From UHGV virus genome UHGV-0038492: 64,000 bases of DNA; one strand, written 5' to 3'. This stretch comes from a virus. Below the pieces are notes generated by a model. That model was given only the letters and a program-made list of their open reading frames with translations. It was not told the DNA's origin and searched no databases. This document shows, one piece after another, positions 30,662-50,747 of the stretch; the stretch's first letter is position 1, and every line of letters starts with the position of its first letter. A program made the position numbers and the translations under genes.

Positions 30662-30742
30662 TAACCCGCTTATAAAAAAAATATTGGGGGGGGGGTAAGC
30701 TACTCCCCCCGATCTTTAGCTCCCGATAGAGAACTTAATATC

Positions 30743-33700
30743 ATGGCAAAAGCGGTAAAGAAAATACGATTACATAATCTTAGACCATATACCGGTGATA
30801 TCGGTGAAGGCGTTTTACTTTTCTCCAAGGATGAGAAAGATTATAAGTTACCAGTCCGTGAGATCATTGCGGATATTGACACCGTACGTAATGCGGTGGC
30901 TGAAGCACAGACAGCAGCAACACAATCACAAGAAGCTGCAACTCAGGCTACACAAGCAAAGAATTTAGCAGAAACAGCAAAACAACAAACTGACACCGTT
31001 GCAGCTACGGTTGCTCAACAAGCGCAAACTGTAACCGAAAAAGCAACTGAAGTCGGTACAAAACACACTGAAGTGTTAGCCGCGAAAACTGCGGTAGACG
31101 AAGTATCAGTGTCGGTGAATGAGAAGGCTCAAGCTGTCGCCGCAAGCGAACAATCGGTGACGGCTGCTGCGGCTGATGTAACTAAGAAAGCAGAAACGGT
31201 TGCGCAACAGGCCGGACAAGTTCAACAGACGGCTACCAGCGTCGCAAATACTGCGGCATCAGTTGAGGCCAGTAAAGGTGCAGTGGAGAAAATTGCTGCG
31301 CAGGTCACGAAAGATAAAGAAACGTCGGAGGGCGCGGCTACCCGCTCAGAAGCGGCCGCACAACGTGCTGAGAAAATCGCCGCCCAAGGCTTAGTTGACG
31401 CTAGTACGATCGGTAAAGGCATCGTTAAACTTAACGATACCCTGACTAGTGAATCCGTGACGGAGGCTGCCACGCCGTCCACGGTTAAACAGCTGAACGA
31501 CGAATTACAGTTAAAAGCCAATAAACATTCGCCGAATTTTACGGGTAAACCGACATCCCCAAAACCGCCGAAGGACTCGAATGACACGAGCATCTCCACA
31601 ACGTCCTGGGTGCGTGACGCGATTGCTGAATTGGTTGGTTCCTCACCCGAGACGTTAAATACCTTAGCGGAATTAGCAGAGGCGTTAGGTAATGACCCTA
31701 ACTTCGCAACAACGATCACTGAGGAGCTTGCGCAGAAGCAACCTATCAGCCCATTACTCACCGCAATCGCTGCGGTTACAAGTGCAGCAAACAAACTCCT
31801 GTATTTCACGGGCTCTAATAAAGTCGAGTTAACCGATTTTACAGAAACTGCCAGATCCTTGTTAGCGAAAGGGTCAACTGCGGATATTATTAACTTCCTG
31901 GGTTTGAAACCCACCGTTGATAAAGCAAACGGCGCACTACAGAAAAACTCTAACGGTGCTGATATCCCAAATAAAGAAACTTTTGCTCGCAACATCGGCC
32001 TATCTCCTGATACCTATCTGCGTTTCCGTGGCAAAATGCCTGTAGATGCTGATATTAACACATTTGCTCCAGATGCTAATTACACAGGAACGTGGTCTAA
32101 GTCGACATCAACCAATGCGTCGATGGCAAAACACTTCCCAGAAGACGGTGCAGTCGGTTATCTGGAAGTGTATAAAGCGGGCAACTACAGTGGCGCGCAA
32201 CGTTTTACCTGTCGTAATGGTAACGTGTACAACCGTATGTTGTCAGCCGCGTGGAACGGAACTAATGGCCCGTGGTCGCCGTGGAGAATGGTAACTACCG
32301 GTGTACGCCCGTTATCTACATCGATTGATCTGAACTCTTTAGGCGGTGCCGAACACATGGGTAACTGGCGTAACTCGTCCAGTTCGTTAGCGGTGTTTGA
32401 CAGACATTATCCTGAAGAGGGCGGTGGCGCTCAAGGTGTTCTGGAAGTCATGGAAGGTGGTCTTTACGGACGGTTGCAGCGATACACTACGCGTCGTGGC
32501 ACAATGTATGTCCGTGGTTTGACTGCAACATGGGATTCATCAAACCCACAATGGGAAGATTGGATTCAGGTTGGTTATCAGACTGACGGTGCTTTCTTTA
32601 AAGCCAATTTTAACGATCTCGTTAAACCGGGTCGTTTCAGTGTCACTGGTCAGGCAACTAACGGCCCACTTACCGGTTCTTCTGGCGAAACCATATTAGG
32701 CGTTTGTGAAGTTACCTTACGCTTAGACGGTACAGGGGTCGAACAGAATTATACCACATACGGCACGGGTGCAGAAACTAAAGGTCGTAAATTCCAACGT
32801 ATCCGTACGGGTAACATTTGGAGCGATTGGCGTGAGGTTTTCACATCCTATTCGCTTCCGTTGGCCTTAGGTATCGGTGGGGTTGCTGCCAAGGTCGATC
32901 CGTTAGACTGGCAAACCTTCGACTTCGTTCCTGGCCAGATGATAAGCACACCGTTGAATACCATGAAAAACATTCCTGCGGGAATGGATTGGGGTGTTAT
33001 TGACGGTAACTTGGTCACTATTCTTGTAGGGGCGTCGGAGGACACCGGTACTGGTCGGAGTATGTTGGTCTGGCGTGGTACAGTGTCTACTGCTAACTAT
33101 CGCTTCTTTGCAGTACGTATCGCCGGTGAGAAGGGTAGCCGTACGATTACGCCACGACAGATGCCTGTGTTAAATGCAGCACACACTTGGGCCGAGAAAC
33201 AAACGTTCTCTAAAGGCTTAGCGGGTGAATTGACAGGTAATGCGTCAACGGCAACGAAACTGAAAACAGCCCGTTTAATCGGTGGTGTAAGTTTCGACGG
33301 CACTAGCGACATTCCACTCCCTGGTGTTAACCAGCAAGGTAATCAAAACACCACTGGGAACGCGGGAACCGCAACCAAATTACAAACGGCTCGAAACATC
33401 AACGGTGTGAAATTCGATGGCTCTAGAGACATCAATATCAACACCTTGGTAGGACGTGGACGTGTTACTGCACTGACGGGATCAAACAAAGGTACGCCTG
33501 GTATTCAGATGTACGAAGTTTACAATAACGGTTATCCGACCGCTTATGGTAACTTATTGCATTTGGGTGGTGCTACTGCGCTAGGCGAAGGCGAGTTGTT
33601 AATCGGATGGTCGGGGACGAGTGGTGCGCACGCGCCAGTTTATATTCGTAGCCGACGTGATACGGCTGACGCGCCGTGGTCAGATTGGGCACAAGTTTAT

Positions 33701-35302
33701 ACTGCCCGTGACAGCATTCCTGGCGTAAATGCCACAGGTAATCAAGATACTACCGGCAATGCCGCTACCGCGACGAAACTGAAAACCGCTCGCAGAATTG
33801 GAGGCGTTACCTTTGACGGTACTGGGGATATCAATTTACCGGGGGTTAACCAAGCCGGTAACCAGAATACGTCAGGTAATGCTGCGACAGCGACTAAACT
33901 TCAGACTGCGCGAAATATAGGCGGTGTGGCTTTTGATGGTACTAAAGACATCAGTTTACCTGGTGTAAACCAGACGGGTAATCAGTCGACTACCGGAAAC
34001 GCAGCCACGGCCACAAAGTTGCAGACAGCTCGTACCATTAACGGTATCCCATTTGACGGCACTAGAAATATATCGTTAGGGCCTGCCGATATAGGTTGCC
34101 CGGCATCACCTAGTGGTTGGTTAGAAACTGGCGCTGATGGCGCTGCAATAACTACAGCACAGCTAGTGACGTTATTGAAAAATAACGGCGCGTTTACCAC
34201 AAGATCGTGGGTTGCTCGCTGCGCATGGGCTTATGCCGCTAGTGCAAGTATACCTCATAGCGAGACGGGTTGTGGTGTTATTCCATTAGCTGGGGCTGTT
34301 ATAGAAGTGATTAGTAACGGCAACAGCACAAACAACTACACGATCCGTATAACGACCGCCACAACGACGAGCGTCTCCGGCGCACTCACTAATGCGGAGT
34401 TTATCTACGTATTTAACGGCGATACTTACTCACCAGGTTGGCGTCGCGTGTACAATACGAGAAACAAGCCAACTGCTGCGGATGTTGGGGCGTTGCCATT
34501 ATCTGGCGGTCAGTTGAATGGCGCGTTGGGTATTGGAACCACTAATGCTTTAGGTGGGAACTCCATAGTTTTAGGGGATAATGACACCGGCCTTAAGCAG
34601 AACGGGGATGGCGTTCTAGATGTTTACGCCAATAATGCTCATGTTTTACGCTTTACGAGTGGGGCTGTTCAAAGCAATAAACCTCTCAACGTTACCGGAG
34701 ATATAAGAACCAATACTTGGGTTTATGCAAATAGATATTCTATTAACAGCAACTCAGGTTCTTGGATTAGCATGAGAGACCATAACGTTATTTTTGGTCT
34801 TAATCCGGTAGGAACTAGTTCTGCTCAGGCATTGTTAAGACAAGACCATGCTGATAGGAAATTTTTTGTTGGTGGTTTAGGTAACTATCAATTCGGCTTT
34901 TACATGATAAACAACTCACGTACTGATAATGGCACCGATGCTAATGCTTATTTGCAAAACGACGGTACTTGGGTTTGTGGTGGGAACGGTAACTTTAACG
35001 ACGTTTATATACGATCTGACGCCCGGCTGAAAAGTAATTTCTCTCCAATAACTAATGCATTGGAGAAGGTAAAGGAATTGTCAGGTTTAATATACGACAA
35101 AAAGGAGAACTTTAAATCCACTAATGTTCATCGTGAGGCTGGTGTTGTAGCGCAGACCTTACAAAAAGTGTTACCTGAAGCAGTTTCTACTTATAAAGAC
35201 GCTAATGGTGAGGACGTTTTGACGGTCTCTAACTCTGCACAAATAGCTCTACTTATTGAAGCAATAAAGGAGTTGGCGGAGATAATTGAGACCAAGTTAT
35301 AA
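30743..35302 (+). CDS. long tail fibre protein with Phage_fiber_2-type repeats and a C-terminal intramolecular chaperone (S74-like) domain
   Basis: N-terminal Ala/Gln-rich coiled-coil; six GNAATATKLQTAR-x-I-x-GV-x-FDG repeats; C-terminal IRS-DARLKSNF autocleavage motif. Confidence 0.8.
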   Translation: MAKAVKKIRLHNLRPYTGDIGEGVLLFSKDEKDYKLPVREIIADIDTVRNAVAEAQTAATQSQEAATQATQAKNLAETAKQQTDTVAATVAQQAQTVTEKATEVGTKHTEVLAAKTAVDEVSVSVNEKAQAVAASEQSVTAAAADVTKKAETVAQQAGQVQQTATSVANTAASVEASKGAVEKIAAQVTKDKETSEGAATRSEAAAQRAEKIAAQGLVDASTIGKGIVKLNDTLTSESVTEAATPSTVKQLNDELQLKANKHSPNFTGKPTSPKPPKDSNDTSISTTSWVRDAIAELVGSSPETLNTLAELAEALGNDPNFATTITEELAQKQPISPLLTAIAAVTSAANKLLYFTGSNKVELTDFTETARSLLAKGSTADIINFLGLKPTVDKANGALQKNSNGADIPNKETFARNIGLSPDTYLRFRGKMPVDADINTFAPDANYTGTWSKSTSTNASMAKHFPEDGAVGYLEVYKAGNYSGAQRFTCRNGNVYNRMLSAAWNGTNGPWSPWRMVTTGVRPLSTSIDLNSLGGAEHMGNWRNSSSSLAVFDRHYPEEGGGAQGVLEVMEGGLYGRLQRYTTRRGTMYVRGLTATWDSSNPQWEDWIQVGYQTDGAFFKANFNDLVKPGRFSVTGQATNGPLTGSSGETILGVCEVTLRLDGTGVEQNYTTYGTGAETKGRKFQRIRTGNIWSDWREVFTSYSLPLALGIGGVAAKVDPLDWQTFDFVPGQMISTPLNTMKNIPAGMDWGVIDGNLVTILVGASEDTGTGRSMLVWRGTVSTANYRFFAVRIAGEKGSRTITPRQMPVLNAAHTWAEKQTFSKGLAGELTGNASTATKLKTARLIGGVSFDGTSDIPLPGVNQQGNQNTTGNAGTATKLQTARNINGVKFDGSRDININTLVGRGRVTALTGSNKGTPGIQMYEVYNNGYPTAYGNLLHLGGATALGEGELLIGWSGTSGAHAPVYIRSRRDTADAPWSDWAQVYTARDSIPGVNATGNQDTTGNAATATKLKTARRIGGVTFDGTGDINLPGVNQAGNQNTSGNAATATKLQTARNIGGVAFDGTKDISLPGVNQTGNQSTTGNAATATKLQTARTINGIPFDGTRNISLGPADIGCPASPSGWLETGADGAAITTAQLVTLLKNNGAFTTRSWVARCAWAYAASASIPHSETGCGVIPLAGAVIEVISNGNSTNNYTIRITTATTTSVSGALTNAEFIYVFNGDTYSPGWRRVYNTRNKPTAADVGALPLSGGQLNGALGIGTTNALGGNSIVLGDNDTGLKQNGDGVLDVYANNAHVLRFTSGAVQSNKPLNVTGDIRTNTWVYANRYSINSNSGSWISMRDHNVIFGLNPVGTSSAQALLRQDHADRKFFVGGLGNYQFGFYMINNSRTDNGTDANAYLQNDGTWVCGGNGNFNDVYIRSDARLKSNFSPITNALEKVKELSGLIYDKKENFKSTNVHREAGVVAQTLQKVLPEAVSTYKDANGEDVLTVSNSAQIALLIEAIKELAEIIETKL
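33230..33440 (+). repeat. intragenic fibre repeats (two copies)
   Basis: GNASTATKLKTARLIGGVSFDG / GNAGTATKLQTARNINGVKFDG. Confidence 0.7.
33724..34078 (+). repeat. intragenic fibre repeats (three copies)
   Basis: three consecutive ~40-aa units GNQxTxGNAATATKL(K/Q)TAR..G..FDGT.DI.LPGVNQ. Confidence 0.7.
35017..35299 (+). other. intramolecular chaperone / autoproteolytic domain at the fibre C-terminus
   Basis: S-DARLK motif at the domain start followed by ~95 residues. Confidence 0.65.
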
Positions 35303-35349
35303 TTATCAGTGAGGGGTTCCCCCTCACTGACTCACAAGTACGTTATAAG

Positions 35350-36141
35350 GTGGTTATTTTGTCTGTATCAGCGACTCCCGGATGGATTGGTTCTTCAGCA
35401 AAAGCTGAAGCTGGTAATGGTTGGATGTCTGGCGCGATGCACACACTCGGTGTGCCAGTTCCAGGCTGGATGTCGCAATTGGCGGGAAAATCAAAAGAGG
35501 CTCAGTATTCGATCGGGGCTAATCACAATTACAATAAAGATACGCTTATTAACTATTTACGTTCCATAGGCTCTACTGCTGTCGTTGTGACCATTACAGG
35601 GGATTTAGTGTCTTATAGTAGCGGGGTTCCTTGTTTAGAGTTCCCTAGCAATCTTCCAAATTCGTATATTACCCTCATCATCAATCCTGGGGTTACAGTA
35701 TACGGCAGAGGAGGCAACGGCGGTTCTAACTCACCAGGCGGTGCAGGTGGAACCGCAATACAGAACGGAATAGGAAACAGACTGCGTATAACCAACCGTG
35801 GCGCTATTGCCGGAGGCGGTGGCGGCGGTGGCGGCGGTAACAGGGGTAGACTAATATTTGGTGGTGGCGGTGGTCGCCCATTCGGTGCTGGTGGGTCTTC
35901 CTCTCATATGAGTTCCGGTGCGGCTGCTGGTACTATTTCCGCTCCTGGTAGAGGATCTGTTGGTGAGGGGTCTCTTAGTGCATATACAGGCGGTTCGGGT
36001 GGTAATGTCGGTGCTGGTGGAGGAAGATGTAATACTCATGGTAACGGTACAGAATATAACGGCGGAGCAGCTGGTGCAGCTGTTACTGGTAATGCGCCAA
36101 GATGGGACGCAGTAGGTGCAATATACGGTTCACGTGTTTAA
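35350..36141 (+). CDS. gp38-like tail-fibre tip adhesin with polyglycine motifs
   Basis: N-terminal PGWIGSSAKAEAGNGWMSGA and polyglycine blocks GGGGGGGGGN, GGGGGRPFGAGG; start uncertain (GTG 35350 or TTG 35359). Confidence 0.55.
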   Translation: MVILSVSATPGWIGSSAKAEAGNGWMSGAMHTLGVPVPGWMSQLAGKSKEAQYSIGANHNYNKDTLINYLRSIGSTAVVVTITGDLVSYSSGVPCLEFPSNLPNSYITLIINPGVTVYGRGGNGGSNSPGGAGGTAIQNGIGNRLRITNRGAIAGGGGGGGGGNRGRLIFGGGGGRPFGAGGSSSHMSSGAAAGTISAPGRGSVGEGSLSAYTGGSGGNVGAGGGRCNTHGNGTEYNGGAAGAAVTGNAPRWDAVGAIYGSRV

Positions 36142-36157
36142 TTAAAAAGGAGGGTAG

Positions 36158-36670
36158 ATGGGGGTAGCGTCAGGATGGGTCGGATCTTCAGCTAAGAATG
36201 AAACTGGCCAACAATGGATGAGCGCTGCGGGTAGTAAATTAGGATTGGGTAGACCTTTTATGATGAGCCAAATGGTAGGCAAGTCCGTAGGTTGCAAAAT
36301 AGCAACAGCTTATTATAAAACGTCAAATACTGATAAAGTAGAGAACTGGGGTGCTGTCGGAGCCGATTGGCCGTTGGTAGATAAGAACAAAGGAACGCTT
36401 TCTGGTGCCTCGAACTGTGGCTTAGGACGTTTAGTGGGGATCGTACTTACGCAAGCTCACTACATTTCTGGTGTTCCACCCACTGCGGCTTTATACATCG
36501 CAGGAGGAAGGGCAAGTAATATTACAGTAACAGTTGGTGGTGTTTCGCAAGCATTTACTTACGATAGTGTTATTAACGGTTTTCACTATTATTGGCAAGG
36601 AACGCCTAGTTCGGCCTTTATAGCGGCAATGAAGAAGACGGGTGTTACACAAGATTTGAAAGTTAGCTAA
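36158..36670 (+). CDS. gp38-like N-terminal domain protein (adhesin/chaperone paralog lacking polyglycine blocks)
   Basis: N-terminus GWVGSSAKNETGQQWMSAA parallels 35350; AAGGAGGG upstream of ATG. Confidence 0.5.
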   Translation: MGVASGWVGSSAKNETGQQWMSAAGSKLGLGRPFMMSQMVGKSVGCKIATAYYKTSNTDKVENWGAVGADWPLVDKNKGTLSGASNCGLGRLVGIVLTQAHYISGVPPTAALYIAGGRASNITVTVGGVSQAFTYDSVINGFHYYWQGTPSSAFIAAMKKTGVTQDLKVS

Positions 36671-36828
36671 CTAATTGGGGTAAAACGATAACTAAAACTA
36701 GTAAAATAAGAGTTCGTGAATTCGTAATTCAATAATTTTTTATAGAAAGATTGATTTATTAGAATCGGAGGGGTGCGATGTTTTTAGCCAACATTTTACG
36801 TCTCCCCAATCATAGGAGGTAACCATAC

Positions 36829-37341
36829 GTGGAACAATTCACGCCAGATTTGTCGTTAACTTCACTTAACATGGTTATTTCACTGGTTAACCATGACCTC
36901 CAGCTTGACTTGCAAGAGAACGAGGTTGAAGTCAGCGACGTAAAGACCAGTAACGAAATGGATCGTGACACCACTGCTGTTGTAAAGATAAAACGTCCCG
37001 GTAACAGAACGTTACAAATCTATTACAACCGTTTAACCGCAGAACGTTGGTTAAACCAGCAACCTATTCTGGTGCAAGTAACTGGAGAGGGGTTTAACAC
37101 ACACGATTTAATCGATGCGATTAACGCAGCCTGTGGTAGTAACCTGCAACCCGAAGATCTTCAGGACGATTCATTTACAGTAGGAAAAGACGCTGTAACG
37201 TTACAGGTATCACCTAACTCCCTAAGTTATAAAGGCCAATTCTCTGTTTTGGTTTTTGGTAACGGCGAAGAGGCCGCAGTAACAAAAGATGACAACCTAA
37301 TCGTTACCGCAGATAATCGCGTCTTAACCTTTGGAGGTTAA
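36829..37341 (+). CDS. tail-fibre-associated protein, paralog of 26665..27228
   Basis: GTG start after AGGAGGT; shared PDLSLTS and NAACGSNLQPEDL motifs. Confidence 0.6.
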   Translation: MEQFTPDLSLTSLNMVISLVNHDLQLDLQENEVEVSDVKTSNEMDRDTTAVVKIKRPGNRTLQIYYNRLTAERWLNQQPILVQVTGEGFNTHDLIDAINAACGSNLQPEDLQDDSFTVGKDAVTLQVSPNSLSYKGQFSVLVFGNGEEAAVTKDDNLIVTADNRVLTFGG

Positions 37342-37343
37342 CA

Positions 37344-37964
37344 GTGGCTGAACTGGTAGGAAAGGTACGCATTCACGAGCTACCGTCACTTTCAGAAGAC
37401 ATTACTGGTGTGGTGGTGTTAGCGTCTAAGGAACAAACCGAATACCAACTCCCGATTGAGAATTTAGGGGGTGGTGAGGTTACAGTGAGTCCGTCAGCGA
37501 ATAACATCCTTAAGTCTAACAGCGATGGACTGTTTGTTGATGGCGCACATCCTATTGTACCGAAAATGGATGCAAAAACCTTATCGGGAAATATGGTGGT
37601 AGAAAAAACGCTGACAGGTGGTGCGGTAATCTGCAAAACAACGGTTGACGTTAATAATAGGCTGGGGATTTCGCAATTATCTGGGGTGTCAATTTATAGC
37701 CAGTGCCTGCTGGAAAATAAATTGGTTTACCTGGCAGAAGACGGCAGTATTATTGATGCGTACTTCTACATTAGTAATACAAAGAACACGGCCAGTACAA
37801 TAACCCACACCATTCGGGTTGTCTTAGCGAAAGTACCTTCTAAAGTTGTCGATATCACCGATTTATCTGAAACTGAGGTGCAGTATCAGGATGCTAATTT
37901 GCCTGTTAAGATCGTTATTAAGCATCTTACAGGGACAACACTTTCCCAGAACGGAATGAAATAA
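37344..37964 (+). CDS. short fibre protein with the conserved fibre N-terminal domain
   Basis: N-terminus VGKVRIHELPSLSEDITGVVVLASKEQTEYQ; GTG start after GGAGG. Confidence 0.55.
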   Translation: MAELVGKVRIHELPSLSEDITGVVVLASKEQTEYQLPIENLGGGEVTVSPSANNILKSNSDGLFVDGAHPIVPKMDAKTLSGNMVVEKTLTGGAVICKTTVDVNNRLGISQLSGVSIYSQCLLENKLVYLAEDGSIIDAYFYISNTKNTASTITHTIRVVLAKVPSKVVDITDLSETEVQYQDANLPVKIVIKHLTGTTLSQNGMK

Positions 37965-37969
37965 GTTAT

Positions 37970-38016
37970 AGGTAGTAGGGGCTAAGCCCCTACTACCTTT
38001 CTTTTTTTTTATTTTT
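37970..38016 (+). terminator. intrinsic terminator
   Basis: hairpin ggtagtagggg-ctaa-gcccctactacc plus long T-run. Confidence 0.7.
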
Positions 38017-38018
38017 TC

Positions 38019-38060
38019 TCAGATATATATTACCTAGAGGAGAGCGAAATTTACATTCGC
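38019..38060 (+). promoter_or_regulatory. promoter-like motif TCAGATATATATTACCTAG plus hairpin
   Basis: exact copy of the motif at 16480 and 42447. Confidence 0.45.
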
Positions 38061-38090
38061 TCTATTAGTTATAGCCGAAAGGAGGATTAG

Positions 38091-38942
38091 ATGTATCACC
38101 CGTATTATCTCCCGCACATTCTAGCAAATAGGGACCCTGATTACTACTACGAACAAACAAAAGGATCTTTTAATCGGCTCTACATTCGCGAATTTAATAC
38201 CGATGAAATGACGGACGACCAGTATCTGGAGTATCTAAAAGACCTTTACGGTTTTTCAAAATCGAATAAAGGTGACTTTGGACGTTCCGCAGTCATTAGG
38301 GTTGGTGAATATCGACATTTGGCTAAGCCTGTTACGTATCCTATTGTTACACGCGCCTATACATCGGATAGGCAATATATTGCTGAACTAAAATTTCCTT
38401 TACGGATAGACGGGCCCCAAATTAGCGCTATAGAAGTAGAGATTCAACCAATTGCTGAAGACTATATTGAAGACTACTTCAAGAAAGCTAAAGACGTACT
38501 CGAGGAGGGTTTAAGCTACTCTGAAGAAGGAACGATTTGTCTTCTCTCGTTACTCTCGAAGACTTATGTCACAGCAAATTTCCGTATCTCCGATTCCAGT
38601 AACTACAATACACTTACCCCCTCTAAAACAAAACCTGTTTATTGGGACGATCGGTTAGTCGACAGACAACGCTGGCTTACTATCTTAGATAAAGTAAAAT
38701 TCGAACCCCCTAAACACACCGAAGACGATTTTATTTTATTGCACAACTTTGAACCAATTTATATTCCGACGCATTTTGATCAAGCCTTACGTCATCGGTT
38801 GAAGTATGTGTTGGAATTACGGTACGGAAAGATAAACGGACTAACCTGTTCCGGTGAATTGGGTGAAGAAGAACGCGAGAAGATAAAAATCGTGTTTGAT
38901 AAGTTGGTTGAAGATTACATTAAGAAGGAAGGACAAATATGA
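38091..38942 (+). CDS. hypothetical protein
   Basis: GAAAGGAGG upstream of ATG. Confidence 0.6.
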   Translation: MYHPYYLPHILANRDPDYYYEQTKGSFNRLYIREFNTDEMTDDQYLEYLKDLYGFSKSNKGDFGRSAVIRVGEYRHLAKPVTYPIVTRAYTSDRQYIAELKFPLRIDGPQISAIEVEIQPIAEDYIEDYFKKAKDVLEEGLSYSEEGTICLLSLLSKTYVTANFRISDSSNYNTLTPSKTKPVYWDDRLVDRQRWLTILDKVKFEPPKHTEDDFILLHNFEPIYIPTHFDQALRHRLKYVLELRYGKINGLTCSGELGEEEREKIKIVFDKLVEDYIKKEGQI

Positions 38943-39382: not shown

Positions 39383-39393
39383 GGAGTAGTAAC

Positions 39394-40236
39394 ATGTTTC
39401 AGTTCGAACTAACCGAAGAAGAAAAGGTTATCAACAAGTTTAAAATTTCCCCTATCCCTACTGAAGAACAAATTAAGGAAATCGCTGAGCTACAAAACAC
39501 GTACACGTTTTACTATAAAGTTAAATCAGAAGCGTTTAACATTTTCTGGGTAGAAGGCGAGGTCGATTTCCCTAACAAGCTCATTAGTGCGGTTATGGAT
39601 ATTTTAGTACGGCCTGTTGAGACGCCTAAAGATCCAGAAATTCCGGATCAAATGACTTGTAGGCTAAAAGACAAGCCAACTGCGAAAGACGTCGCTTACT
39701 TCACAGACGAGATTCTACTTACCCCAAAACAAGCAGGCAAAGTTGAACCAATAATAGACCTTTTTTTCAGTGACGAATTCACTTATGTGGCTGAAGACAA
39801 CAAGCTAAAAGTGAGCTATGAGAGTGCTTGTTGTCACTCTCTTTTAAAAGATCTATTGGAAGACATAGAGGATGAAAGAATTCTGCTATTTACCGTTGAA
39901 AATATTACCGAACTCGATGCTGATGTATTTATCCACGACGTGGATGATGAAATTGGACGTTTTGTAATGGCAATTTGTCAACAAAAATATCTTGAAGGTA
40001 ACTTGCATCTCTTGGTCAAAAACGAACCACGGGTTCTTAAAGTTTTGAAGTCCCATGTACGGAAAATTAAGAGAAATAATGAATTATATAAACGTGTTTT
40101 CGAGAAATACGAAAAGGAAGTCAGACAACGTTTTTCACGCCATTGTTCCGGCTGGTTCGAAAATCACGGTGTGGAACTCGCCCAGCTGTTTGATCAGTTT
40201 TATAATGAGATGAGGAAGATTCAAGATCTTAAATAA
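39394..40236 (+). CDS. hypothetical protein
   Basis: AAGGAG upstream of ATG. Confidence 0.6.
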   Translation: MFQFELTEEEKVINKFKISPIPTEEQIKEIAELQNTYTFYYKVKSEAFNIFWVEGEVDFPNKLISAVMDILVRPVETPKDPEIPDQMTCRLKDKPTAKDVAYFTDEILLTPKQAGKVEPIIDLFFSDEFTYVAEDNKLKVSYESACCHSLLKDLLEDIEDERILLFTVENITELDADVFIHDVDDEIGRFVMAICQQKYLEGNLHLLVKNEPRVLKVLKSHVRKIKRNNELYKRVFEKYEKEVRQRFSRHCSGWFENHGVELAQLFDQFYNEMRKIQDLK

Positions 40237-40322
40237 AGGGTTGAAACCCACTTTCGATAATTATTAAACAGGGGAATTTACCCCCCCCCTCCACATAGAG
40301 TAAATCCCTAAAGGAGCATTAA

Positions 40323-40838: not shown

Positions 40839-40840
40839 AA

Positions 40841-41122: not shown

Positions 41123-41165
41123 TTAGCTCTCCCTCGGGATTACCGAGGGAGATAAGGCGATTTAC

Positions 41166-42435: not shown

Positions 42436-42446
42436 TAAAAATAATT

Positions 42447-42496
42447 TCAGATATATATTACCTAGGTGAGAGTTCAGCTACTCTCACTTAACTAAA
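42447..42496 (+). promoter_or_regulatory. promoter-like motif TCAGATATATATTACCTAG plus hairpin plus TTAACTAAA
   Basis: exact motif copy; hairpin gtgagagt-tcagct-actctcac. Confidence 0.45.
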
Positions 42497-42516
42497 CCAT
42501 TTTAGGAGCATATACC

Positions 42517-43011: not shown

Positions 43012-43055
43012 CGTAAATTAACACTTCGACTTGTAAATCTAAAAGGAAAAATAAA

Positions 43056-43847: not shown

Positions 43848-44268
43848 ACTTAAAGATGAATTGCGTGATTACATTCGTAAATACCCAGCCAGTATTCCGG
43901 TACTGGCTTCACTCTCTTTATCGGGTATGGACCTTAATACCTTAACGGTAGAAAAATTCCACGAAGTGGTAAAATCGTCGTATCAAATTGTTACCGATAT
44001 GTCAGTGCGGAAACGTGCTGACTACCCAGACGGTGATTTCGGTACAGAGATGTTCACAGACTACGCAGTTGCGTATCTGATGGGACGTCACTTTATCGAT
44101 AAGCTCAATACAGCTGTAGAAGGAGAAACCGTTACGGAAATTGTCAATGCTTGGCAACAACGTATTGTGAGTGACGCTTACTGTCGTCAAGCCTTAAAGA
44201 AAATGTCGGCGGTAGCATTAACCAACGACCAACGTGCTTTAGAGTTCCTTAAGCACAATTACGAATAA
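43837..44268 (+). CDS. hypothetical protein, paralog of 45532..45963
   Basis: LKDELRDYIRKYPASIPVLA vs LKDDIRNYIRNNPIALGVLA; ATG at 43837 after AGGAG. Confidence 0.55.
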   Translation: MSSKLKDELRDYIRKYPASIPVLASLSLSGMDLNTLTVEKFHEVVKSSYQIVTDMSVRKRADYPDGDFGTEMFTDYAVAYLMGRHFIDKLNTAVEGETVTEIVNAWQQRIVSDAYCRQALKKMSAVALTNDQRALEFLKHNYE

Positions 44269-44289
44269 TTTACCAAAAGGAAAAGTACC

Positions 44290-45462
44290 ATGTTTAATAT
44301 TGAGATTACACCGCTCGTTAAAACTGAAATCCGTCCGGTTCCTGAAGCACAGTTACTCGATCAACTTTATCGTATATTCCTGGATAAAGGTGTGCATTTC
44401 CGTGTAGAACAGGTCAATGACGAAAGCATCGTGTTCTACTGGACTCACAGCAACGATTATCTTTGCGATACTATCGCGAAAGAAATTGGTGAGTTGCTCA
44501 ACCCAGCAGCCACGAACGCCAAGGTAGAAACGACCGAGACTGAACAACCGAAAGTCGAAGAACAGCAGTGGCCTGAAACCAGCGCCGACAACCCGCTCGT
44601 CTATCGGTATGGTGCCGAAACGAATGAGAAAATTAAAGAAACATTAGAGGCTCTCTATCCTGATTATTTAACCATCAGTCAACAATGCGACGTGTTAGTT
44701 ATCTGGATGAATGATTTCGAACCCAAGCTCATTAAAGCTATTCGCATCACCGTTGCACTGATCGTCAAAGACGCCGTTCGCCTTATTTCGTTTGAAGGTA
44801 TCGGTCGACGTGACGCGGATGATTTCATGCGTGATGTCGTTCACGAACACAAGGAGAAAATTCTTCGGTCTAATTATGTTGGTGACACTCTAATTGTGCT
44901 TGTTGATAATGATCCCGTTATTATTAATCAGCTGAACATCCGTATGCGTAAGTTAACAAAGAAAATTTTTCTTAAAGGGGAGCAATCGCTTGAAGAGTCC
45001 AAAGTGTCTAAAGTCTTTACTTACACTGGTCCAGATGCCAAAGCGATTAACGATACTTTGGCAGCTTTCTATTCTAGCAAAGTAGAGACTAAACTCGAGG
45101 GCGAAGAACTCACCATTAAATGGAAATGGTGGGACATTGCTCTTGAAGAAGAAATTCATAGTCTTATTAAAGAGATTGTTGACAATCGTCTACGTCTTCT
45201 AACAATCACTACTATCGGTGGAGAAGATGCCGATGCGTTTATAAGCGGGGTTCTTCGCGCGTATCCTGAGAAAGTCCGTCAATGGACTTACAATGACGAT
45301 ACACTTATCATCCTGCTCAACTATGAACCTGGCCTTATTGGGAAATTGAAGGATCGTCTACGCGATCTGTGGTACAAACGATTTCTTAAGGATGGGTCGA
45401 AAGAGCTCATTAAACGATTGTTTTCTGATTGCAACTGTCCTATATGTCAGAAGCATCGCTAA
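44290..45462 (+). CDS. hypothetical protein with internal duplication and C-terminal CNCPIC motif
   Basis: repeats FEGIGRRDADDFMRDVV... and TIGGEDADAFISGVL... Confidence 0.6.
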   Translation: MFNIEITPLVKTEIRPVPEAQLLDQLYRIFLDKGVHFRVEQVNDESIVFYWTHSNDYLCDTIAKEIGELLNPAATNAKVETTETEQPKVEEQQWPETSADNPLVYRYGAETNEKIKETLEALYPDYLTISQQCDVLVIWMNDFEPKLIKAIRITVALIVKDAVRLISFEGIGRRDADDFMRDVVHEHKEKILRSNYVGDTLIVLVDNDPVIINQLNIRMRKLTKKIFLKGEQSLEESKVSKVFTYTGPDAKAINDTLAAFYSSKVETKLEGEELTIKWKWWDIALEEEIHSLIKEIVDNRLRLLTITTIGGEDADAFISGVLRAYPEKVRQWTYNDDTLIILLNYEPGLIGKLKDRLRDLWYKRFLKDGSKELIKRLFSDCNCPICQKHR

Positions 45463-45531
45463 TTAACTAAATTCGTACAAGGGGTGGTTTACCACCCCTC
45501 TATTATTGTATTTACCTAAAGGAGTATTAAA

Positions 45532-45963
45532 ATGTTTTTCGTATTAAAAGATGATATTCGTAACTACATTCGTAACAATCCGATTGCTCTAGGCGTTTTA
45601 GCAGGTTTCTGTCGTCCAAATACTGACTTCGATTTAGTTAAGTTAGAAGAATATCAAGAAATTGTGAATACTACCTACCTGCACATCTGTAGCTGGGGTA
45701 AACGTCCTCGTGAAGAGTACCCTGTGGGTGAGTTAGGTGACACCATGCACCGTGACCAGAATCTGATGCACGAATTCGTTGAATACACACTGGAAAATCT
45801 TAACTATCCGCTCCTGGTCGACACTGTACCAGAAATGGTTGACGAATGGTTAAAACGTGTTTATAGCGATCCTACCGCCAACAAGTTACTGAGCCAGATG
45901 TCACAAACTTCTCGTGACATCGACACTCGTACGCTGATGTACTTAGCACATAATGTTCGCTAA
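45532..45963 (+). CDS. hypothetical protein, paralog of 43837..44268
   Basis: AAAGGAG upstream of ATG. Confidence 0.6.
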   Translation: MFFVLKDDIRNYIRNNPIALGVLAGFCRPNTDFDLVKLEEYQEIVNTTYLHICSWGKRPREEYPVGELGDTMHRDQNLMHEFVEYTLENLNYPLLVDTVPEMVDEWLKRVYSDPTANKLLSQMSQTSRDIDTRTLMYLAHNVR

Positions 45964-45969
45964 CCTCTT

Positions 45970-46030
45970 TCCGCTATAGGCTTCGGTCTATAGCGGAATT
46001 AATTTTCTTCCCCTTTTCTTTTTTTGTTAT
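45970..46030 (+). terminator. intrinsic terminator
   Basis: hairpin ccgctatag-gcttcggtc-tatagcgg followed by T-rich tract. Confidence 0.55.
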
Positions 46031-46130
46031 TTTGACACCACTTTACTTACACCCTACCCGACTATTCCTATGCTGGCTGAGGGATGTAAAACGACCTCTT
46101 AAACCTTTTTACTTACTGTGAGTTAACGCG

Positions 46131-46979
46131 ATGTCTCTTACGTCAAAACAGAAACTGCTAAAACTCATCAACACTGAAAACAATATTATTCCACCGTTGA
46201 CTTTCAGTGATGTTGAAATCGGGGAACCTACCGGTACTGGGGTTGATACCCAGGTGGTTCTGACCTCTAAACTTAAAGGCGATGAGTCTACTACTTTAAC
46301 AGTGACTTACCACCGTCGTAACTTACCTGACTACCTAACCGGTGAGTTGGTATTCGGTAACGACAGTGTGGTAACCGCATCAGATTTGCTTAATGCGATT
46401 AACGCAAAATACAACCTAAATATTTTACCCTCGGATATCGTTGACGCAAAAGTTGAAGGCGAAACCCATCAGCTTACCGCTAACGAGAAATCTTACGAGT
46501 GGTGCGGTGTAGTAACGCTTACGCTGCGCGATCCTATTGACCTGACTGAACTGTTACCGGTTACTCAATTAGAGAATCTGGTAGAGTATCCGTCCACGAA
46601 GAAAGGTAACGCGGCGGTTTATTCTCACCCGATTGATTTCACCGCAGAAAAAGATTACCTTGACCCGATTACTATCAACGACGCTGTAGACTTGGTAGAA
46701 TTAGCTACTAAACTGGATAGCGTCGTTGACGAGAAATGGGTAAGCGTACCTAAGAACGCGGCTAACAACCTGTACGGAGCGAAGATTATTTACGATGGTC
46801 CAACCGCAGGTTACGAAGGCGCAAATACGAAGTTCACTCGTGTGTTGGTGCTAACACTCAGCCCGCTGTGTTCTAACCTGACCGGTAACCTGTTAATTCA
46901 CTTTAACGGGACCGATCGTCCGAAGTCGAAGATTGAATTAGCACAGACTAATCCGGTCTTACCGGGATTCTTAGATTAA
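46131..46979 (+). CDS. member of the six-gene structural-protein paralog family
   Basis: DLLNAINAKYNLNILPSDIVD aligns with the NLQPEDL motif of 26665 and 36829. Confidence 0.55.
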   Translation: MSLTSKQKLLKLINTENNIIPPLTFSDVEIGEPTGTGVDTQVVLTSKLKGDESTTLTVTYHRRNLPDYLTGELVFGNDSVVTASDLLNAINAKYNLNILPSDIVDAKVEGETHQLTANEKSYEWCGVVTLTLRDPIDLTELLPVTQLENLVEYPSTKKGNAAVYSHPIDFTAEKDYLDPITINDAVDLVELATKLDSVVDEKWVSVPKNAANNLYGAKIIYDGPTAGYEGANTKFTRVLVLTLSPLCSNLTGNLLIHFNGTDRPKSKIELAQTNPVLPGFLD

Positions 46980-46992
46980 GAGGATTACAGTA

Positions 46993-47472
46993 ATGGCCAA
47001 TCAAGAAACTATCTTCGACCTTATTAAAAAGGCTAACCCGGACGCTGAGTTCGACACCACCAAAGTCACACTGGGTGAACCGGTTGTGACCACCGGTACT
47101 TACAATACCGAAATTACGGTTGCGTCGATTAAGAATCTCGGTTATGTTAATAAGCAAACGTTCCAGTATAACCGCATTGACGCAGGTTTGTATTTCCTGA
47201 ACGTATTACCGAAATTGTTGGTAGAATCTGCAACGACTACCGCTGACTTACTGCCCGTCATTAACGAGCAGTACAGCCTAACCCTTACAGAAGACGACGT
47301 GTGGGTAGAACAGGTTGGTGAGTTACCGTTAGACGGTAGCGCAATCGAACACGGTATTTTCTTCCGTCCTGAGTGTCTGACCTGGGTTGGTGGTTTTACA
47401 GTGCGTGTTGCGCGTAAACCGGCTGACGCCACACCGCCAAAGACGGCGTCTCGCGCTAAAAAGAAAAAATAA
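46993..47472 (+). CDS. member of the six-gene paralog family; Lys-rich C-terminus
   Basis: ADLLPVINEQYSLTLTEDDV motif; N-terminus parallels 46131. Confidence 0.55.
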   Translation: MANQETIFDLIKKANPDAEFDTTKVTLGEPVVTTGTYNTEITVASIKNLGYVNKQTFQYNRIDAGLYFLNVLPKLLVESATTTADLLPVINEQYSLTLTEDDVWVEQVGELPLDGSAIEHGIFFRPECLTWVGGFTVRVARKPADATPPKTASRAKKKK

Positions 47473-47476
47473 TCAC

Positions 47477-47511
47477 AGGGTGGGGTAATCCCCACCCTCT
47501 TTTCTTTTTTG
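47477..47511 (+). terminator. intrinsic terminator
   Basis: hairpin agggtgggg-taat-ccccaccct plus T-run. Confidence 0.7.
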
Positions 47512-47534
47512 TGTAAAATAGGAGTTAAACGAAA

Positions 47535-48125
47535 ATGGCCGAACGTTGGACTAAAGAAGGTATTATTGAATCCAAAACCGATTTGGAAGGTGGGTACGTC
47601 AACGACCCTGACGACAAAGGTGGAGAAACCTGTCACGGGGTAACACTGACAACTGCACGCGAATACGGGTACAAAGGAAGAATGAAAGATCTGACCCGTG
47701 CGCAAGCGTTTGACATTTACGATCGTGGTTGGTGGAAGAAACTTAAACTCGATGAGATTTTCGCTATCTCGCCGATACTCGCCGACCGGATGTTTGATTT
47801 TGCTATTAACTCTGGCCGTGTTAACTGTGTGAAGTCATTACAACGTATTCTCAACGTTTTAAATAACGAAGGGAAACTTTACGCAGATATTGACACCGAC
47901 GGTGGTATGGGACCTAAAACACTAGGTGCTCTGAATGCTTATCTAAATTACCGTAAAGGCGAGGGATTAGGCATCTTAATCTTTGCGTTAATCTCACACC
48001 AGGTAACCTACTACACGGAAATCTCCGAAAAGCGTAAGAAGAATGAAAAATTCGCTTACGGCTGGTACGGACGTGTGTACAGGGAAATGCCGGATTATGT
48101 AGTGAAGGCGGGGTTAGTAAAATGA
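47535..48125 (+). CDS. endolysin: GH108-type lysozyme-like domain with C-terminal peptidoglycan-binding region
   Basis: N-terminal LEGGYVNDPDDKGGETCHGVT matches the GH108 signature; C-terminal GPKTLGALNAYL fits a PG_binding_3-type region. Confidence 0.7.
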   Translation: MAERWTKEGIIESKTDLEGGYVNDPDDKGGETCHGVTLTTAREYGYKGRMKDLTRAQAFDIYDRGWWKKLKLDEIFAISPILADRMFDFAINSGRVNCVKSLQRILNVLNNEGKLYADIDTDGGMGPKTLGALNAYLNYRKGEGLGILIFALISHQVTYYTEISEKRKKNEKFAYGWYGRVYREMPDYVVKAGLVK

Positions 48126-48226
48126 ATTGGTTTGCTAAACTCTTAGCGTTATTGTGGAAAGCGTTAACGTCTGGTCGAAAACGTAAAGACGAAAAACGTG
48201 GGCAAGAATTCTTCTGGTTTTTGTAA
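48122..48226 (+). CDS. possible 34-aa peptide overlapping the endolysin stop (not in the ORF track)
   Basis: ATGA overlap; MNWFAKLLALLWKALTSGRKRKDEKRGQEFFWFL is hydrophobic/amphipathic then basic. Confidence 0.25.
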   Translation: MNWFAKLLALLWKALTSGRKRKDEKRGQEFFWFL

Positions 48227-48241
48227 GGAAAGGTGTGGGTA

Positions 48242-48907
48242 ATGGAAAAGCTTCAATATAAACGTTTAGATGATAAGTGGTTTGTATTAACGGAGGATTA
48301 CCATTATCCGTTTACGTTACGTGAGATTTATCACGACCACGTACACTTAGACCGTGCGGTTTATTTAACCGGTGTATTACCTGACACGCAACTGTGGTTA
48401 ACCGCTCCGAAAGGGTTCGTAACGGACTTAGCGTCGATACCCGAACACTTACAGGGAATTTTCCATCCTGACGGGCCTTGGGCACCGGCTGCGTGTATTC
48501 ACGACTTGTTATACCAGAAATGCAGTACGGAACGTAGCTACCCTATGACGCCCGGTGGAAACGTTTCTCGCATTATCGATAAAGAGTTCGCTGACTTAAC
48601 GTTTCTGCGTATTATGCAGTCGTTAGAAATCTCACCGTATATCTGCCAAACGTTTTATAAAGCCGTTGTAGGATTCGGTTGGGATGCTTACGTAGACCCT
48701 AACGCGAAACCGTCTTATACCACTAACGACTACCGTACGTTAGATTACAATCGAAACTATTTGTTCGTTCGCGAGTTTAAGGAGCCTGCTATTCCTGACC
48801 ACGAACGAGTTGATATCACCACAGGTTGTCCCGTTAATGTCAAATACCTGAACATTAAACGGGCTTTTCTGTCTGGGAGGGAAGATGTTTCATCCAAATC
48901 CGAGTAA
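48242..48907 (+). CDS. hypothetical protein
   Basis: ATG at 48242 after AAGGAAAGG; the track start at 48233 is GTG. Confidence 0.55.
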   Translation: MEKLQYKRLDDKWFVLTEDYHYPFTLREIYHDHVHLDRAVYLTGVLPDTQLWLTAPKGFVTDLASIPEHLQGIFHPDGPWAPAACIHDLLYQKCSTERSYPMTPGGNVSRIIDKEFADLTFLRIMQSLEISPYICQTFYKAVVGFGWDAYVDPNAKPSYTTNDYRTLDYNRNYLFVREFKEPAIPDHERVDITTGCPVNVKYLNIKRAFLSGREDVSSKSE

Positions 48908-49400
48908 CTTTAAAATCAAAGAGTTAGTACCGCAATCGTACATCACCAAATACGGTGATTCTGCAATTCGGTTTATGAACCCGCTGTTAATGATTTCGCT
49001 ACAGCAGATTCGTAACCGTTTCGGCAGAATGGTAATTAACTCGTCTGCTGCGCAACAACGTGGTTTAAGAACCTTAGACTTTTTCATCAACCAAGAAAAG
49101 CCTAAGGGTGGTAACTATAAACAACGTGCTTTACAACTCTATTCCGATTCAGGAAGTCAGCACAAGTTCGGTAACGCGTTCGACGCAACATTGTTAGATT
49201 CAACGGTAAAACAAGTCCACGATTACATCGCCGCCAATCCTGATGAGTTTCCGTTTATTCACTTTATTGAATGCGACATCAGTTGGTTACATATCGATGT
49301 TCGTAACCAACCGAATATCACGTTCTGGTCACCGAATCGGGGTACTGTGAAAGTCGCGAAACAAAGCCCTATCGATTGGAGCGCCTTAGTTAAAATCTAA
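48885..49400 (+). CDS. peptidase M15-like zinc metallopeptidase (peptidoglycan peptidase type)
   Basis: SQHKFGNAFDAT fits the SxHxxGxAxD zinc-binding motif and a later WLHIDVR fits the second His motif; GGGAGGG upstream. Confidence 0.5.
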   Translation: MFHPNPSNFKIKELVPQSYITKYGDSAIRFMNPLLMISLQQIRNRFGRMVINSSAAQQRGLRTLDFFINQEKPKGGNYKQRALQLYSDSGSQHKFGNAFDATLLDSTVKQVHDYIAANPDEFPFIHFIECDISWLHIDVRNQPNITFWSPNRGTVKVAKQSPIDWSALVKI

Positions 49401-49493
49401 GCGCATATTCCTTAACTTAGGGTGATTGTACCTTATTTTGTATAAACCGTCTTAGAACGCGTTCTAGCGCGCTCTACGGACAAAATAAACCTA

Positions 49494-49524
49494 CCCTCCT
49501 GCTTAGCAGGAGGGTATTTATTAT
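49494..49524. terminator. bidirectional terminator between convergent genes
   Basis: hairpin ccctcctgc-ttag-caggaggg plus T-rich tail. Confidence 0.6.
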
Positions 49525-50000
49525 TCTACCGGGTGCAGCATAGTGCCGGTATCTGGAATGCTGCCTTCGTGACATCTGAAGAACGTTACACCTTTACCTT
49601 CACCTGTTTTGTAGTTGATGGTAGAATACGCAAACGTTGGGGTTTTCGACAGTAACCCGTTTACACGGTAATAGCGCTCACCGGTAACAACGTTTAAGTT
49701 ACCGTCCACTTTACCTAACAGGTCTTTATAAAGTTGCGGAGATTCAATTTTACCTTCGTCCCATGTAGCGACCCAATTCGCTCCTGTATCCATGACTAAC
49801 ACCGAAAGGGGCATCAGTTTTAGGCTAGACGGTACCGGTTTAAAATCAGCGAATTCTTGAGAAGCACCTGTACAGGTGTAAATGACCATATCGTGTTGGT
49901 CAACAGGTACGGTGGAGAACTGACCTTCTGCGTTCGGCTGAATAGCACAACTTGCCAATGTCATTACAAAAGCAACGACCACGAGAATGCGTTTTAGCAT
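49521..50000 (-). CDS. lipoprotein (signal peptide with lipobox LASC)
   Basis: ATG at 50000 after AAGGA; MLKRILVVVAFVMTLASCA; the track start at 50060 is TTG. Confidence 0.6.
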   Translation of the reverse strand: MLKRILVVVAFVMTLASCAIQPNAEGQFSTVPVDQHDMVIYTCTGASQEFADFKPVPSSLKLMPLSVLVMDTGANWVATWDEGKIESPQLYKDLLGKVDGNLNVVTGERYYRVNGLLSKTPTFAYSTINYKTGEGKGVTFFRCHEGSIPDTGTMLHPVE

Positions 50001-50139
50001 AATCTCATCCTTATTAAAATTAAGAAAAATTAATTTTTTCAGGTTAGCGCTTACTGCCAACCGTCATATCTATATTTTAGGAAATGTCTAAAATAACATT
50101 CTTATGCAATCCACCCCTGCCACTTACGAGGTAAAAACG

Positions 50140-50676
50140 ATGGCTAAAGCCTTCAAACAGCAGCTCATCGAAGCTGTAATTGCTAAAAACTCAGAAACCG
50201 CTTCTAATCTGACGGTTGCTGATGTTGATTTTGGCGCTGTTGCTGAGTTCAGCGGAGACGCTGGCCGCAACACTAAAATTACCCTGACCGCCAAGGCAGA
50301 AAGCCAGAACTTCAAAGGCGAGAAAGAATTCCACTACATTCGTCTGGCTTCTCAAGACCTGATCGGTGCTAAAGCTTACGAACAAGCCGGTAGCCTCGAT
50401 CTGGAAAACTCTGCCATTGTAACCAAACTGAACGAAGAAATGGTTACTAAAGGTTATGTCGATGACGAGTTTGCAGAGAGCGAACTGTCCATTGAGAAAT
50501 CCGAAGGCGACAGCGGTGCTAAAGTTTACACTGTCAAAGTAAGCGAAGGTCACATCAAATTCCTGGCTGGTACCATTGCCACCTTCACTTATTCCAACCC
50601 AGCTCCTGAGAAGGTAGCACTGAGCGGTCTGGAAGGTGAACTTGATGGCTTCACTGCGCCGGGTGTCGGTGGCTAA
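50140..50676 (+). CDS. member of the six-gene paralog family (paralog of 50748..51278)
   Basis: GRNTKITLTAKAESQNFKGEKEFHYIRL and C-terminal GELDGFTA shared with the next gene; ATG at 50140 after GAGGT. Confidence 0.55.
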   Translation: MAKAFKQQLIEAVIAKNSETASNLTVADVDFGAVAEFSGDAGRNTKITLTAKAESQNFKGEKEFHYIRLASQDLIGAKAYEQAGSLDLENSAIVTKLNEEMVTKGYVDDEFAESELSIEKSEGDSGAKVYTVKVSEGHIKFLAGTIATFTYSNPAPEKVALSGLEGELDGFTAPGVGG

Positions 50677-50747
50677 GTAAGTTAAATCGGGGGGGGGGTG
50701 ACCTCCCCCGATATTTCTTTAACTCGTATTATTAAGGACCTAAGATA

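Follow-up and report, generated by a model that had tools for sequence, protein, structure and literature searches.

Poly-G hairpins between late genes of an uncultured SPN3US-like jumbo phage: candidate leaky terminators or transcript stabilisers

The window analysed here is a 64-kilobase (kb) stretch of the virus genome UHGV-0038492 and represents a portion of an uncultured jumbo phage related to SPN3US and Asesino. It includes two runs of ten G residues, referred to as sites 1 and 3, each of which is predicted to provide the 5′ arm of a stable hairpin in a short gap between structural genes, and a third tract with a run of nine C residues, site 2, located between them. We consider, with a probability of about 0.6, that sites 1 and 3 belong to the set of G/C-tract hairpins of this phage, among which they are unusually long, and that they act as leaky terminators or 3′-end stabilisers between late genes. 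Of the two, site 3 would be an intrinsic terminator of borderline quality, and site 1 either a weaker terminator or a stabiliser. The feature is real and explained, and the element is of an ordinary kind. We infer the terminating or stabilising activity, the read-through and the polymerase involved from the sequence and its comparison with relatives.

At site 1, a G10 run (30686-30695) is followed by C6 (30705-30710) and then GATCTTT, in the string AAAAAAAATATT-G10-TAAGCTACT-C6-GATCTTTAG. Site 3 has G10 (50689-50698) and C5 (50705-50709) followed by GATATTT (AAATC-G10-TGACCT-C5-GATATTTCTTTAAC), and site 2 is composed of GGGG (40271-40274) and C9 (40281-40289) in the string AAACA-GGGG-AATTTA-C9-TCCACATAGAG. 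These positions match exactly those given in a preliminary description of the stretch. The three sites are the only places in the 64-kb window with G or C runs of at least 8 nucleotides (nt); 8 overlapping G8 matches were observed compared to 0.51 expected, and a count of 8 was reached in none of 100 shuffles. All three sites occupy gaps (81, 86 and 71 nt) separating + strand open reading frames (ORFs), and are therefore in short non-coding DNA before genes, as had been described. No plausible ORF spanning the three tracts was found in the window, which rules out a coding or frameshift role. The hairpins occur 9-34 nt past the stop codons of + strand ORFs and are thus downstream of a gene on its coding strand. 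Their placement upstream of structural genes, also part of the preliminary description, holds for sites 1 and 3, which precede a tail fibre gene and the gene of a virion-protein paralogue respectively, but not for site 2, where the following gene belongs to phrog_8180, whose function is not known.

The site 1 hairpin, ATT-G10-TAAGCTA-CTCCCCCC-GAT (30683-30713, + strand), was identified by folding and from its orthologues. It can adopt two near-isoenergetic registers (about -18 to -20 kcal/mol), each with a G·U wobble. Register A is a stem of 10 base pairs (bp) between 30688-30697 and 30701-30710 with an AGC loop (RNA GGGGGGGGUA/AGC/UACUCCCCCC). Register B is an 11-bp stem in which AUUG8 pairs with CUC6GAU across a 9-nt loop (RNA AUUGGGGGGGG...CUCCCCCCGAU). 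The hairpin is located 22 nt past the stop codon of the gene for a tail protein of 1001 amino acids (aa), and the ATG of the 1519-aa tail fibre follows it after 30 nt. The layout of the site is A-tract, stem and short T-tract: an A8 run (30674-30681, + strand) lies 5′ of the hairpin and can pair in the fold with the short T tract after the stem, where the T-containing tail is CTTTAG (30714-30719, + strand; CTTTTAG in two relatives). This A run is a second length-variable homopolymer at the locus (A8, A4, A6 and A5 in four related genomes).

The site 3 hairpin, ATC-G10-TGA-CCTCCCCC-GAT (50686-50712, + strand), was recognised by folding, by a terminator-like scan and by its occurrence in 12 genomes. 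Its 11-bp stem (50686-50696 with 50702-50712) includes one G·U pair, has the loop GGUGA and a predicted energy of about -22 to -23 kcal/mol (RNA AUCGGGGGGGG/GGUGA/CCUCCCCCGAU). Of the two virion-protein paralogues on either side, the first has its stop codon 9 nt 5′ of the hairpin and the second has its ATG 36 nt 3′ of it. The hairpin is followed by the T-rich tail ATTTCTTTAA (50713-50722, + strand), in which ATTTCT is invariant in the 12 genomes and is then followed by T or C. The right arm of these elements was initially reported as C5-6. The C6 and C5 runs are present but the full arm is an 8-nt pyrimidine tract, CTCCCCCC at site 1 and CCTCCCCC at site 3. At both sites eight of the ten Gs are paired, in seven G-C pairs and one G·U pair, and the remaining two are in the loop or flank.

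In the G10 forms of sites 1 and 3, the G·U pairs give the sense RNA a stability advantage of 5-6 kcal/mol over the antisense RNA, and this bias points to a role in the + strand transcript rather than in the DNA. When site 3 was modelled with G5 to G12, the predicted energies were -15.8, -15.7, -18.6, -21.1, -23.4, -23.3, -23.6 and -23.0 kcal/mol. Lengths 9-11, which account for 10 of the 12 site 3 genomes, are predicted to be equivalent because extra Gs beyond the saturated 8-nt partner would merely widen the loop, and nothing found in the analysis suggests that the variation of the G run from 7 to 11 among related phages affects the working of the hairpin. Variants were folded singly, the columns of the MAFFT alignment being out of register from the homopolymer arms and indels. 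Two other roles were considered and ruled out: a G-quadruplex, since each hairpin has a single G tract, and an RNase III processing site, since the stems are just 10-11 bp.

Related genomes, designated below by L numbers where they need to be told apart, were recovered by pattern and protein-anchored scans of IMG/VR and metagenome contigs and define an uncultured clade of phages with genomes of about 220-228 kb. Twelve distinct genomes, including the window, carry site 3, and over about 3.5 kb they share 71-97% identity with one another. Their G run measures 7 nt in L025, 8 in L027, 9 in L013 and L023, 10 in six genomes including the window, and 11 in L016 and L024. The right arm CCTCCCCC is found in 10 of the 12, the tail GATATTTCT is invariant in all of them, and the loop is TGA or TAA except in L024; with arm and tail almost constant, the changes fall in the loop and the run length. 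Site 1 recurs in four genomes as three different arm pairs, every one of which folds at the same place: G10-TAAGCTA-CTCCCCCC in the window and L020, G10-TAAAGCA-CCTCCCC in L056 and GGGGGAGGT-GCTT-ACCTCCCCC in L021. The stem of the last (GGGGGAGGT/ACCTCCCCC) is perfectly Watson-Crick. The run is therefore G10 in three of the four genomes and GGGGGAGG in the fourth. A conserved 17-mer downstream of site 1, scanned in genome contigs, gave only chance matches, which were unrelated, mostly bacterial and in several cases coding-like.

This recurrence also disposes of the idea, raised in the preliminary description, that the homopolymers are sequencing or assembly artefacts. Many of the G9 or longer matches listed from IMG/VR do lie at contig ends, so that artefactual poly-G is a reality in data of this kind, but the runs considered here are internal and paired with a complementary arm, and the elements are found again at orthologous places in assemblies made independently from different samples (at least 12 for site 3 and 4 for site 1). 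An artefactual origin is already refuted by these data and is scarcely conceivable.

How far the hairpins resemble terminators differs from site to site. The first mark of an intrinsic terminator is taken as a GC-rich stem of 5 bp or more that closes a loop of 3-8 nt. The stems of sites 1 and 3 are 10-11 bp long, with energies put at -20 to -23 kcal/mol and loops of 3-5 nt in the register with the shortest loop, and site 2 has 4 bp. A U-tract, taken as at least 5 T in 8 nt, is present at site 3 (ATTTCTTT) and absent at site 2 and at site 1, whose tail, CTTTAG, falls short of the canonical tract. The terminator-like scan accepted site 3 (11 bp followed by ATTTCTTT) and listed neither of the others. 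The tail score is 1.9 for site 3, just under the canonical set (about 1.9-5.0), 0.7-1.4 for site 1, as compared to 2.5-5.0 for the obvious terminators, and zero for site 2. The earlier proposal of GC-clamp terminators is thus supported at site 3 and more weakly at site 1, which has a strong stem followed by 3-4 T, but not at site 2.

Sites 1 and 3 are not isolated in the window. The pattern GGGGRGG-N4-CCYCCCC, with up to 3 mismatches, gave 20 matches compared to 1.8 expected, all but one of which are in + strand intergenic hairpins. This G-first set ranges from clear terminators with T runs to stems with poor T tails (781, 35306, 45480 and sites 1-3). The former include a canonical terminator with the same stem style, AGGGTGGGG-TAAT-CCCCACCCT followed by CTTTTCTTTTTT (47477-47498, + strand). 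Among the latter are TGGGGGTG-GAAA-CATCCCCA followed by TTTTT (781-800, + strand), AGGGGTGG-TTTA-CCACCCCT followed by CTATTATTGT (45480-45499, + strand) and an 11-bp G/C-tract hairpin (z-score -5.2) without a T tract in the gap between the tail fibre gene and the first adhesin gene (35306-35330, + strand). In general, most of the longer intergenic gaps hold an obvious terminator, in which T7-T10 comes after a GC stem that commonly has a GGGG/CCCC core. For comparison, the canonical terminator at 37970-37998 (+ strand) has a GGGG/CCCC core and a T9 tail and is followed by an early-promoter-like motif. Four of the longer gaps also carry TCAGATATATATTACCT or a variant of it and then a second stem-loop.

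Several points weigh against sites 1 and 3 being leaky terminators or stabilisers. Site 1 lacks five T in the 8 nt after its stem. The site 3 hairpin is missing from L017 and L026, and the strong conservation near site 3 extends into a very conserved downstream gene and so is not specific to the hairpin. Of the composite d-score, the ranking alone was used. Finally, a promoter may be located after or at the hairpin, which could then be the 5′ end of the downstream message, since the late promoters of this phage group are not predictable from sequence (PMC7598289). In L017 and L026 (866-1500, equivalent to window positions 50661-50747) a third tandem phrog_4862 paralogue replaces the site 3 hairpin, and a different stem-loop, AAGGCGG-TAAAT-CCGCCTT, is found 3′ of the first paralogue.

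On a rival reading the hairpins would be 5′-terminal stem-loops, or stem-loops of the 5′ untranslated region, of the downstream message, generated by a late start or by endonuclease processing and protecting the tail-fibre and virion-protein mRNAs. We regard this as unlikely, even though it would agree with the house style of the phage, in which early-promoter-like motifs each directly precede a stem-loop (GTGAGA...TCTCAC and similar). AT-rich sequence precedes the G runs, and phiKZ-type late promoters are a minimal TATG, start at G and are likewise unpredictable (PMC7598289). There is, however, no TATG beside the G runs, where the sequences read TATTG, AATCG and TGTTG. The hairpins at sites 1, 2, 3 and 45480 end 30-36 nt before an ATG, but canonical terminators such as that at 47477-47498 are also about 35 nt from the next ATG and the spacing is therefore uninformative. 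The T-rich tail and the upstream A-tract suit a terminator better. A motif search located the TATATTAC-type early-promoter-like motif elsewhere in the window and not at sites 1-3, and the stretches from the hairpins to the next ATGs showed neither TATG nor an early-promoter-like motif. Barring an unrecognisable late promoter, expression of the genes that follow is thus likely to require read-through. ATAGAG, which follows sites 1 and 2, was considered for a late promoter and discarded as unsupported, just 3 of its 18 occurrences in the window being in + strand intergenic DNA.

If sites 1 and 3 are leaky terminators or stabilisers, the hairpins would form in the sense RNA between late structural genes, with the G run as the 5′ stem arm pairing with the 8-nt pyrimidine 3′ arm (CTCCCCCC or CCTCCCCC) and two surplus Gs placed in the loop or flank. 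Placed at the 3′ end of the upstream message, they would serve as weak and leaky intrinsic terminators, and they might also block 3′ exonucleases. In this way they could set the ratio of upstream to downstream expression while enough polymerase reads through to the next gene. The G10 homopolymer itself would be an evolutionary by-product. An arm of the GGGGGAGG type could become all-G by one A-to-G transition, in which an A-U pair becomes G·U and RNA pairing is kept, and replication slippage could then lengthen or shorten the run. Lengths of about 8-11 would be tolerated because extra Gs only enlarge the loop.

That such a tract is prone to slippage had already been proposed, and the G7-G11 range at site 3 across the 12 related genomes agrees with this and points to a real or apparent instability of length, but a functional consequence is not indicated, the tract being non-coding and the energy flat from G9 to G12. 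Slippage might nevertheless act as a hypermutable switch which alters the stem or loop, and hence read-through into the fibre or virion-protein genes, and generates heterogeneous progeny. One of the downstream genes is a host-range determinant, run lengths do vary between 7 and 11 in related genomes, and the predicted energy weakens from about -23 kcal/mol (G9-G12) to -18.6 (G7) and -15.7 (G6). Moreover, Campylobacter phages phase-vary via poly-G according to Sorensen et al. 2021, as cited in PMC10877375. We consider a switch very improbable: the tract is non-coding, the energy is flat over the commonest lengths 9-11, the run at site 1, the tail-fibre site, is G10 in all three of its G-run versions, and homopolymer length in metagenome assemblies is error-prone. 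It is just as doubtful that the poly-G arm serves as a tuner over about G6-G11, producing virions with differing fibre or accessory-protein content by a non-coding, terminator-based phase variation. Were tract length to modulate read-through into the tail-fibre gene, this would constitute a new regulatory principle.

Site 2, GGGG-AATTTA-C9 (40271-40289, + strand), is a weak hairpin at a cassette junction and is probably a different element from sites 1 and 3; the relationship originally proposed is doubtful. It has only 4 G-C pairs, is no more stable than shuffled sequences (z-score -0.26) and is absent from the centroid fold. It is stronger on the opposite strand, which is where its G-run-first form sits. 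It is also poorly conserved, with GGGCTGTAAGTCCCCC in L018 and no clear hairpin seen in L019. The upstream gene differs from that of the closest relative, and homology between the two genomes is regained exactly where the C run ends, at 40288. The sole long homopolymer of SPN3US is also a C9 (L063, about 37716; record position 87716), which resembles that of site 2 and is located in a leader between a terminator and gene SPN3US_0091.

The breakpoint at site 2 brings in the possibility that the G/C tracts are mainly recombination junctions, palindromes at cassette borders which provide microhomology for module swaps, as do the PeSL elements of T4-type phages (PMC2839356, PMC4122927). The upstream gene is replaced where homology resumes at the C9 end (40288), site 1 lies where this clade has a T4-like fibre module and SPN3US and Asesino have other genes, and an extra paralogue replaces site 3 in L017 and L026. 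Such a role is improbable as the main one. The G10 sites are without the promoter half of the PeSL-like composite, and site 3 is held in place in 12 genomes with mosaic flanks, which argues for selection on the hairpin itself. In a comparison of breakpoints, a small sample, one falls in site 2 at 40288 and site 3 is replaced in two genomes (L017 and L026) and kept in 12. Recombination is moreover compatible with a terminator role and does not exclude it.

Cassette differences among close relatives are found at window positions 37407-37915, 38079-38906 and 39403-40287, with breakpoints in or beside intergenic stem-loops. The gene for a 283-aa protein (38091-38942) is missing from L018 and L019; in L018, most of gene 37344-37964 is also missing and gene 39394-40236 is replaced. 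The centre of the 35306-35330 hairpin has flipped between two otherwise near-identical genomes: GGGGTTCCCCC in the window corresponds to GGGGGAACCCC in L020, its closest relative (about 12607-12631), and these are exact reverse complements.

The genomic setting is that of a jumbo phage of the SPN3US type. Tail-associated proteins of Erwinia phage Asesino and Salmonella phage SPN3US share 72-77% identity with the 1001-aa protein whose gene ends at 30661, and the gene order in the window is that of SPN3US, whose record includes several annotated genes for RNA polymerase beta and beta′ subunits; by annotation, phages of this group encode multisubunit RNA polymerases of their own. None of the cultured phages is close at the DNA level, a megablast of 30000-34000 giving no match, and the protein of the site 3 gene has less than 40% aa identity to those of cultured relatives. 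Whole-window Rfam and tRNA scans returned no matches. The gene 3′ of site 1 (30743-35302) encodes a T4-like long tail fibre of 1519 aa and is followed by two gp38-like adhesin genes, whereas small hypothetical genes occupy this place in SPN3US and Asesino; the fibre/adhesin block (30743-36670) is apparently an acquired host-range module. The middle part of the tail fibre gene diverges most among relatives. Site 3 is flanked on both sides by genes for paralogous virion proteins (phrog_4862/phrog_1037).

Other signals in the window are of a composite type. At 16445-16520, 37970-38063 and 42449-42490, and as a variant at 21779-21815, a canonical terminator, where present, is followed by TCAGATATATATTACCT and by a second stem-loop starting with GTGAGA or GGAGAG. 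Such composites probably serve the virion RNA polymerase as early promoters with 5′-terminal hairpins. The same layout (AGATAGATRTTATCT) is found 3′ of the tail-protein gene in both Asesino and SPN3US.

These elements are of use for annotation, as they probably mark where transcripts are bounded or attenuated within the late gene clusters of an SPN3US-like clade that is uncultured and whose transcription signals are largely unmapped. They also illustrate the harmless rise of a long homopolymer inside an RNA stem: a slippage-prone tract would persist because either C or U can serve as the partner of a G and any surplus Gs are accommodated in the loop. Assemblies of these phages can consequently be expected to differ by a few bases in the G run without biological meaning.

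Similarities with several known systems can be drawn. Like the PeSLs of T4-type phages (PMC2839356, PMC4122927), the stem-loops here border variable cassettes, and a breakpoint coincides with the C9 of site 2. PeSLs, however, are repeated and join an early promoter to a stem-loop, whereas the G10 hairpins lack a promoter motif; the PeSL-like composites of the window are other elements (16445-16520, 37970-38063 and 42449-42490). The poly-G tracts of Campylobacter phages and of bacterial contingency loci share with the present ones a run of about 9-11 G, a length polymorphism among close relatives and, at one site, proximity to a receptor-binding gene. Tracts of at least 8 G or C with length differences are indeed present here, but contingency tracts lie within reading frames or promoter spacers, where their length switches expression, and here the run is the arm of an intergenic hairpin in which the surplus Gs are predicted to be structurally neutral. 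A third parallel is found in the REP elements of the E. coli malEFG operon, which are intercistronic stabiliser hairpins. The hairpins described here have no sequence relation to REP elements but, as stable intercistronic stem-loops, they could similarly keep 3′ exonucleases from the upstream segment and bias expression within an operon.

The hairpins also resemble intrinsic terminators: just past a stop codon, on the coding strand, a short loop is closed by a GC-rich stem of 10-11 bp. The differences are a short or interrupted U-tract (ATTTCTTT at site 3 and CTTTAG at site 1), a homopolymer 5′ arm longer than the 3′ arm and one stem position that is G·U. Unrelated phage contigs in IMG/VR carry, among the matches listed, G9-AAA-CCTCCCCC-TTTTTTT and similar elements in which G9-loop-C(Y)CCCCC stems are followed by T5-7. 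These G9 elements are plain intrinsic terminators with the same arms and G·U position as those described here. They came from a broad IMG/VR scan for G9...CYCCCCC, in which none of the loci checked among the matches listed was related to the window. An unrelated 150-kb viral contig, IMGVR_UViG_638275724_000001 (L003, L009, L010), includes three copies of CAGT-G10-TTTGGGGTT-CCCCC-GATATACC. In SPN3US itself all G runs are shorter than 7 and C9 occurs once, and GGGG...CCCC stems with T runs occur throughout its genome.

A further comparison is with phiKZ, for which ONT-cappable-seq mapped 61 terminator regions that share CCYCCCC-HWWD-GGGRRGG followed by only TTAT (PMC10914365). phiKZ is a jumbo phage with RNA polymerases of its own, a feature annotated as well in SPN3US, the relative of the present phage, and the motifs have in common a C-tract with a pyrimidine variant, a G-tract with purine variants and a short TTAT-like tail. 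They differ in that the C-tract comes first in phiKZ and the G-tract here, and in host and genus. The full consensus, 5′-BCCYCCCCHWWDGGGRRGGBYTTATKYYGT-3′ (PMC10914365), has no match in the window within 3 mismatches because the arm order is swapped. The window element nearest in style to it is a C-first hairpin on the coding strand of - strand genes (63486-63508), CCCCTCCC-TGTAAC-GGGGAGGGG followed by TATCCATTTTATTT, 5′ of the gene for a 1727-aa virion protein. Jumbo phages with their own polymerases also have AT-rich early promoters (PMC7598289), and the TCAGATATATATTACCT composites are similar in character. In 201phi2-1, just 52 of 132 mapped 3′ ends look canonical (PMC11512511). Together, the phiKZ and 201phi2-1 data therefore indicate that terminators built from C/G-tract stems and short T tails are well established in such phages.

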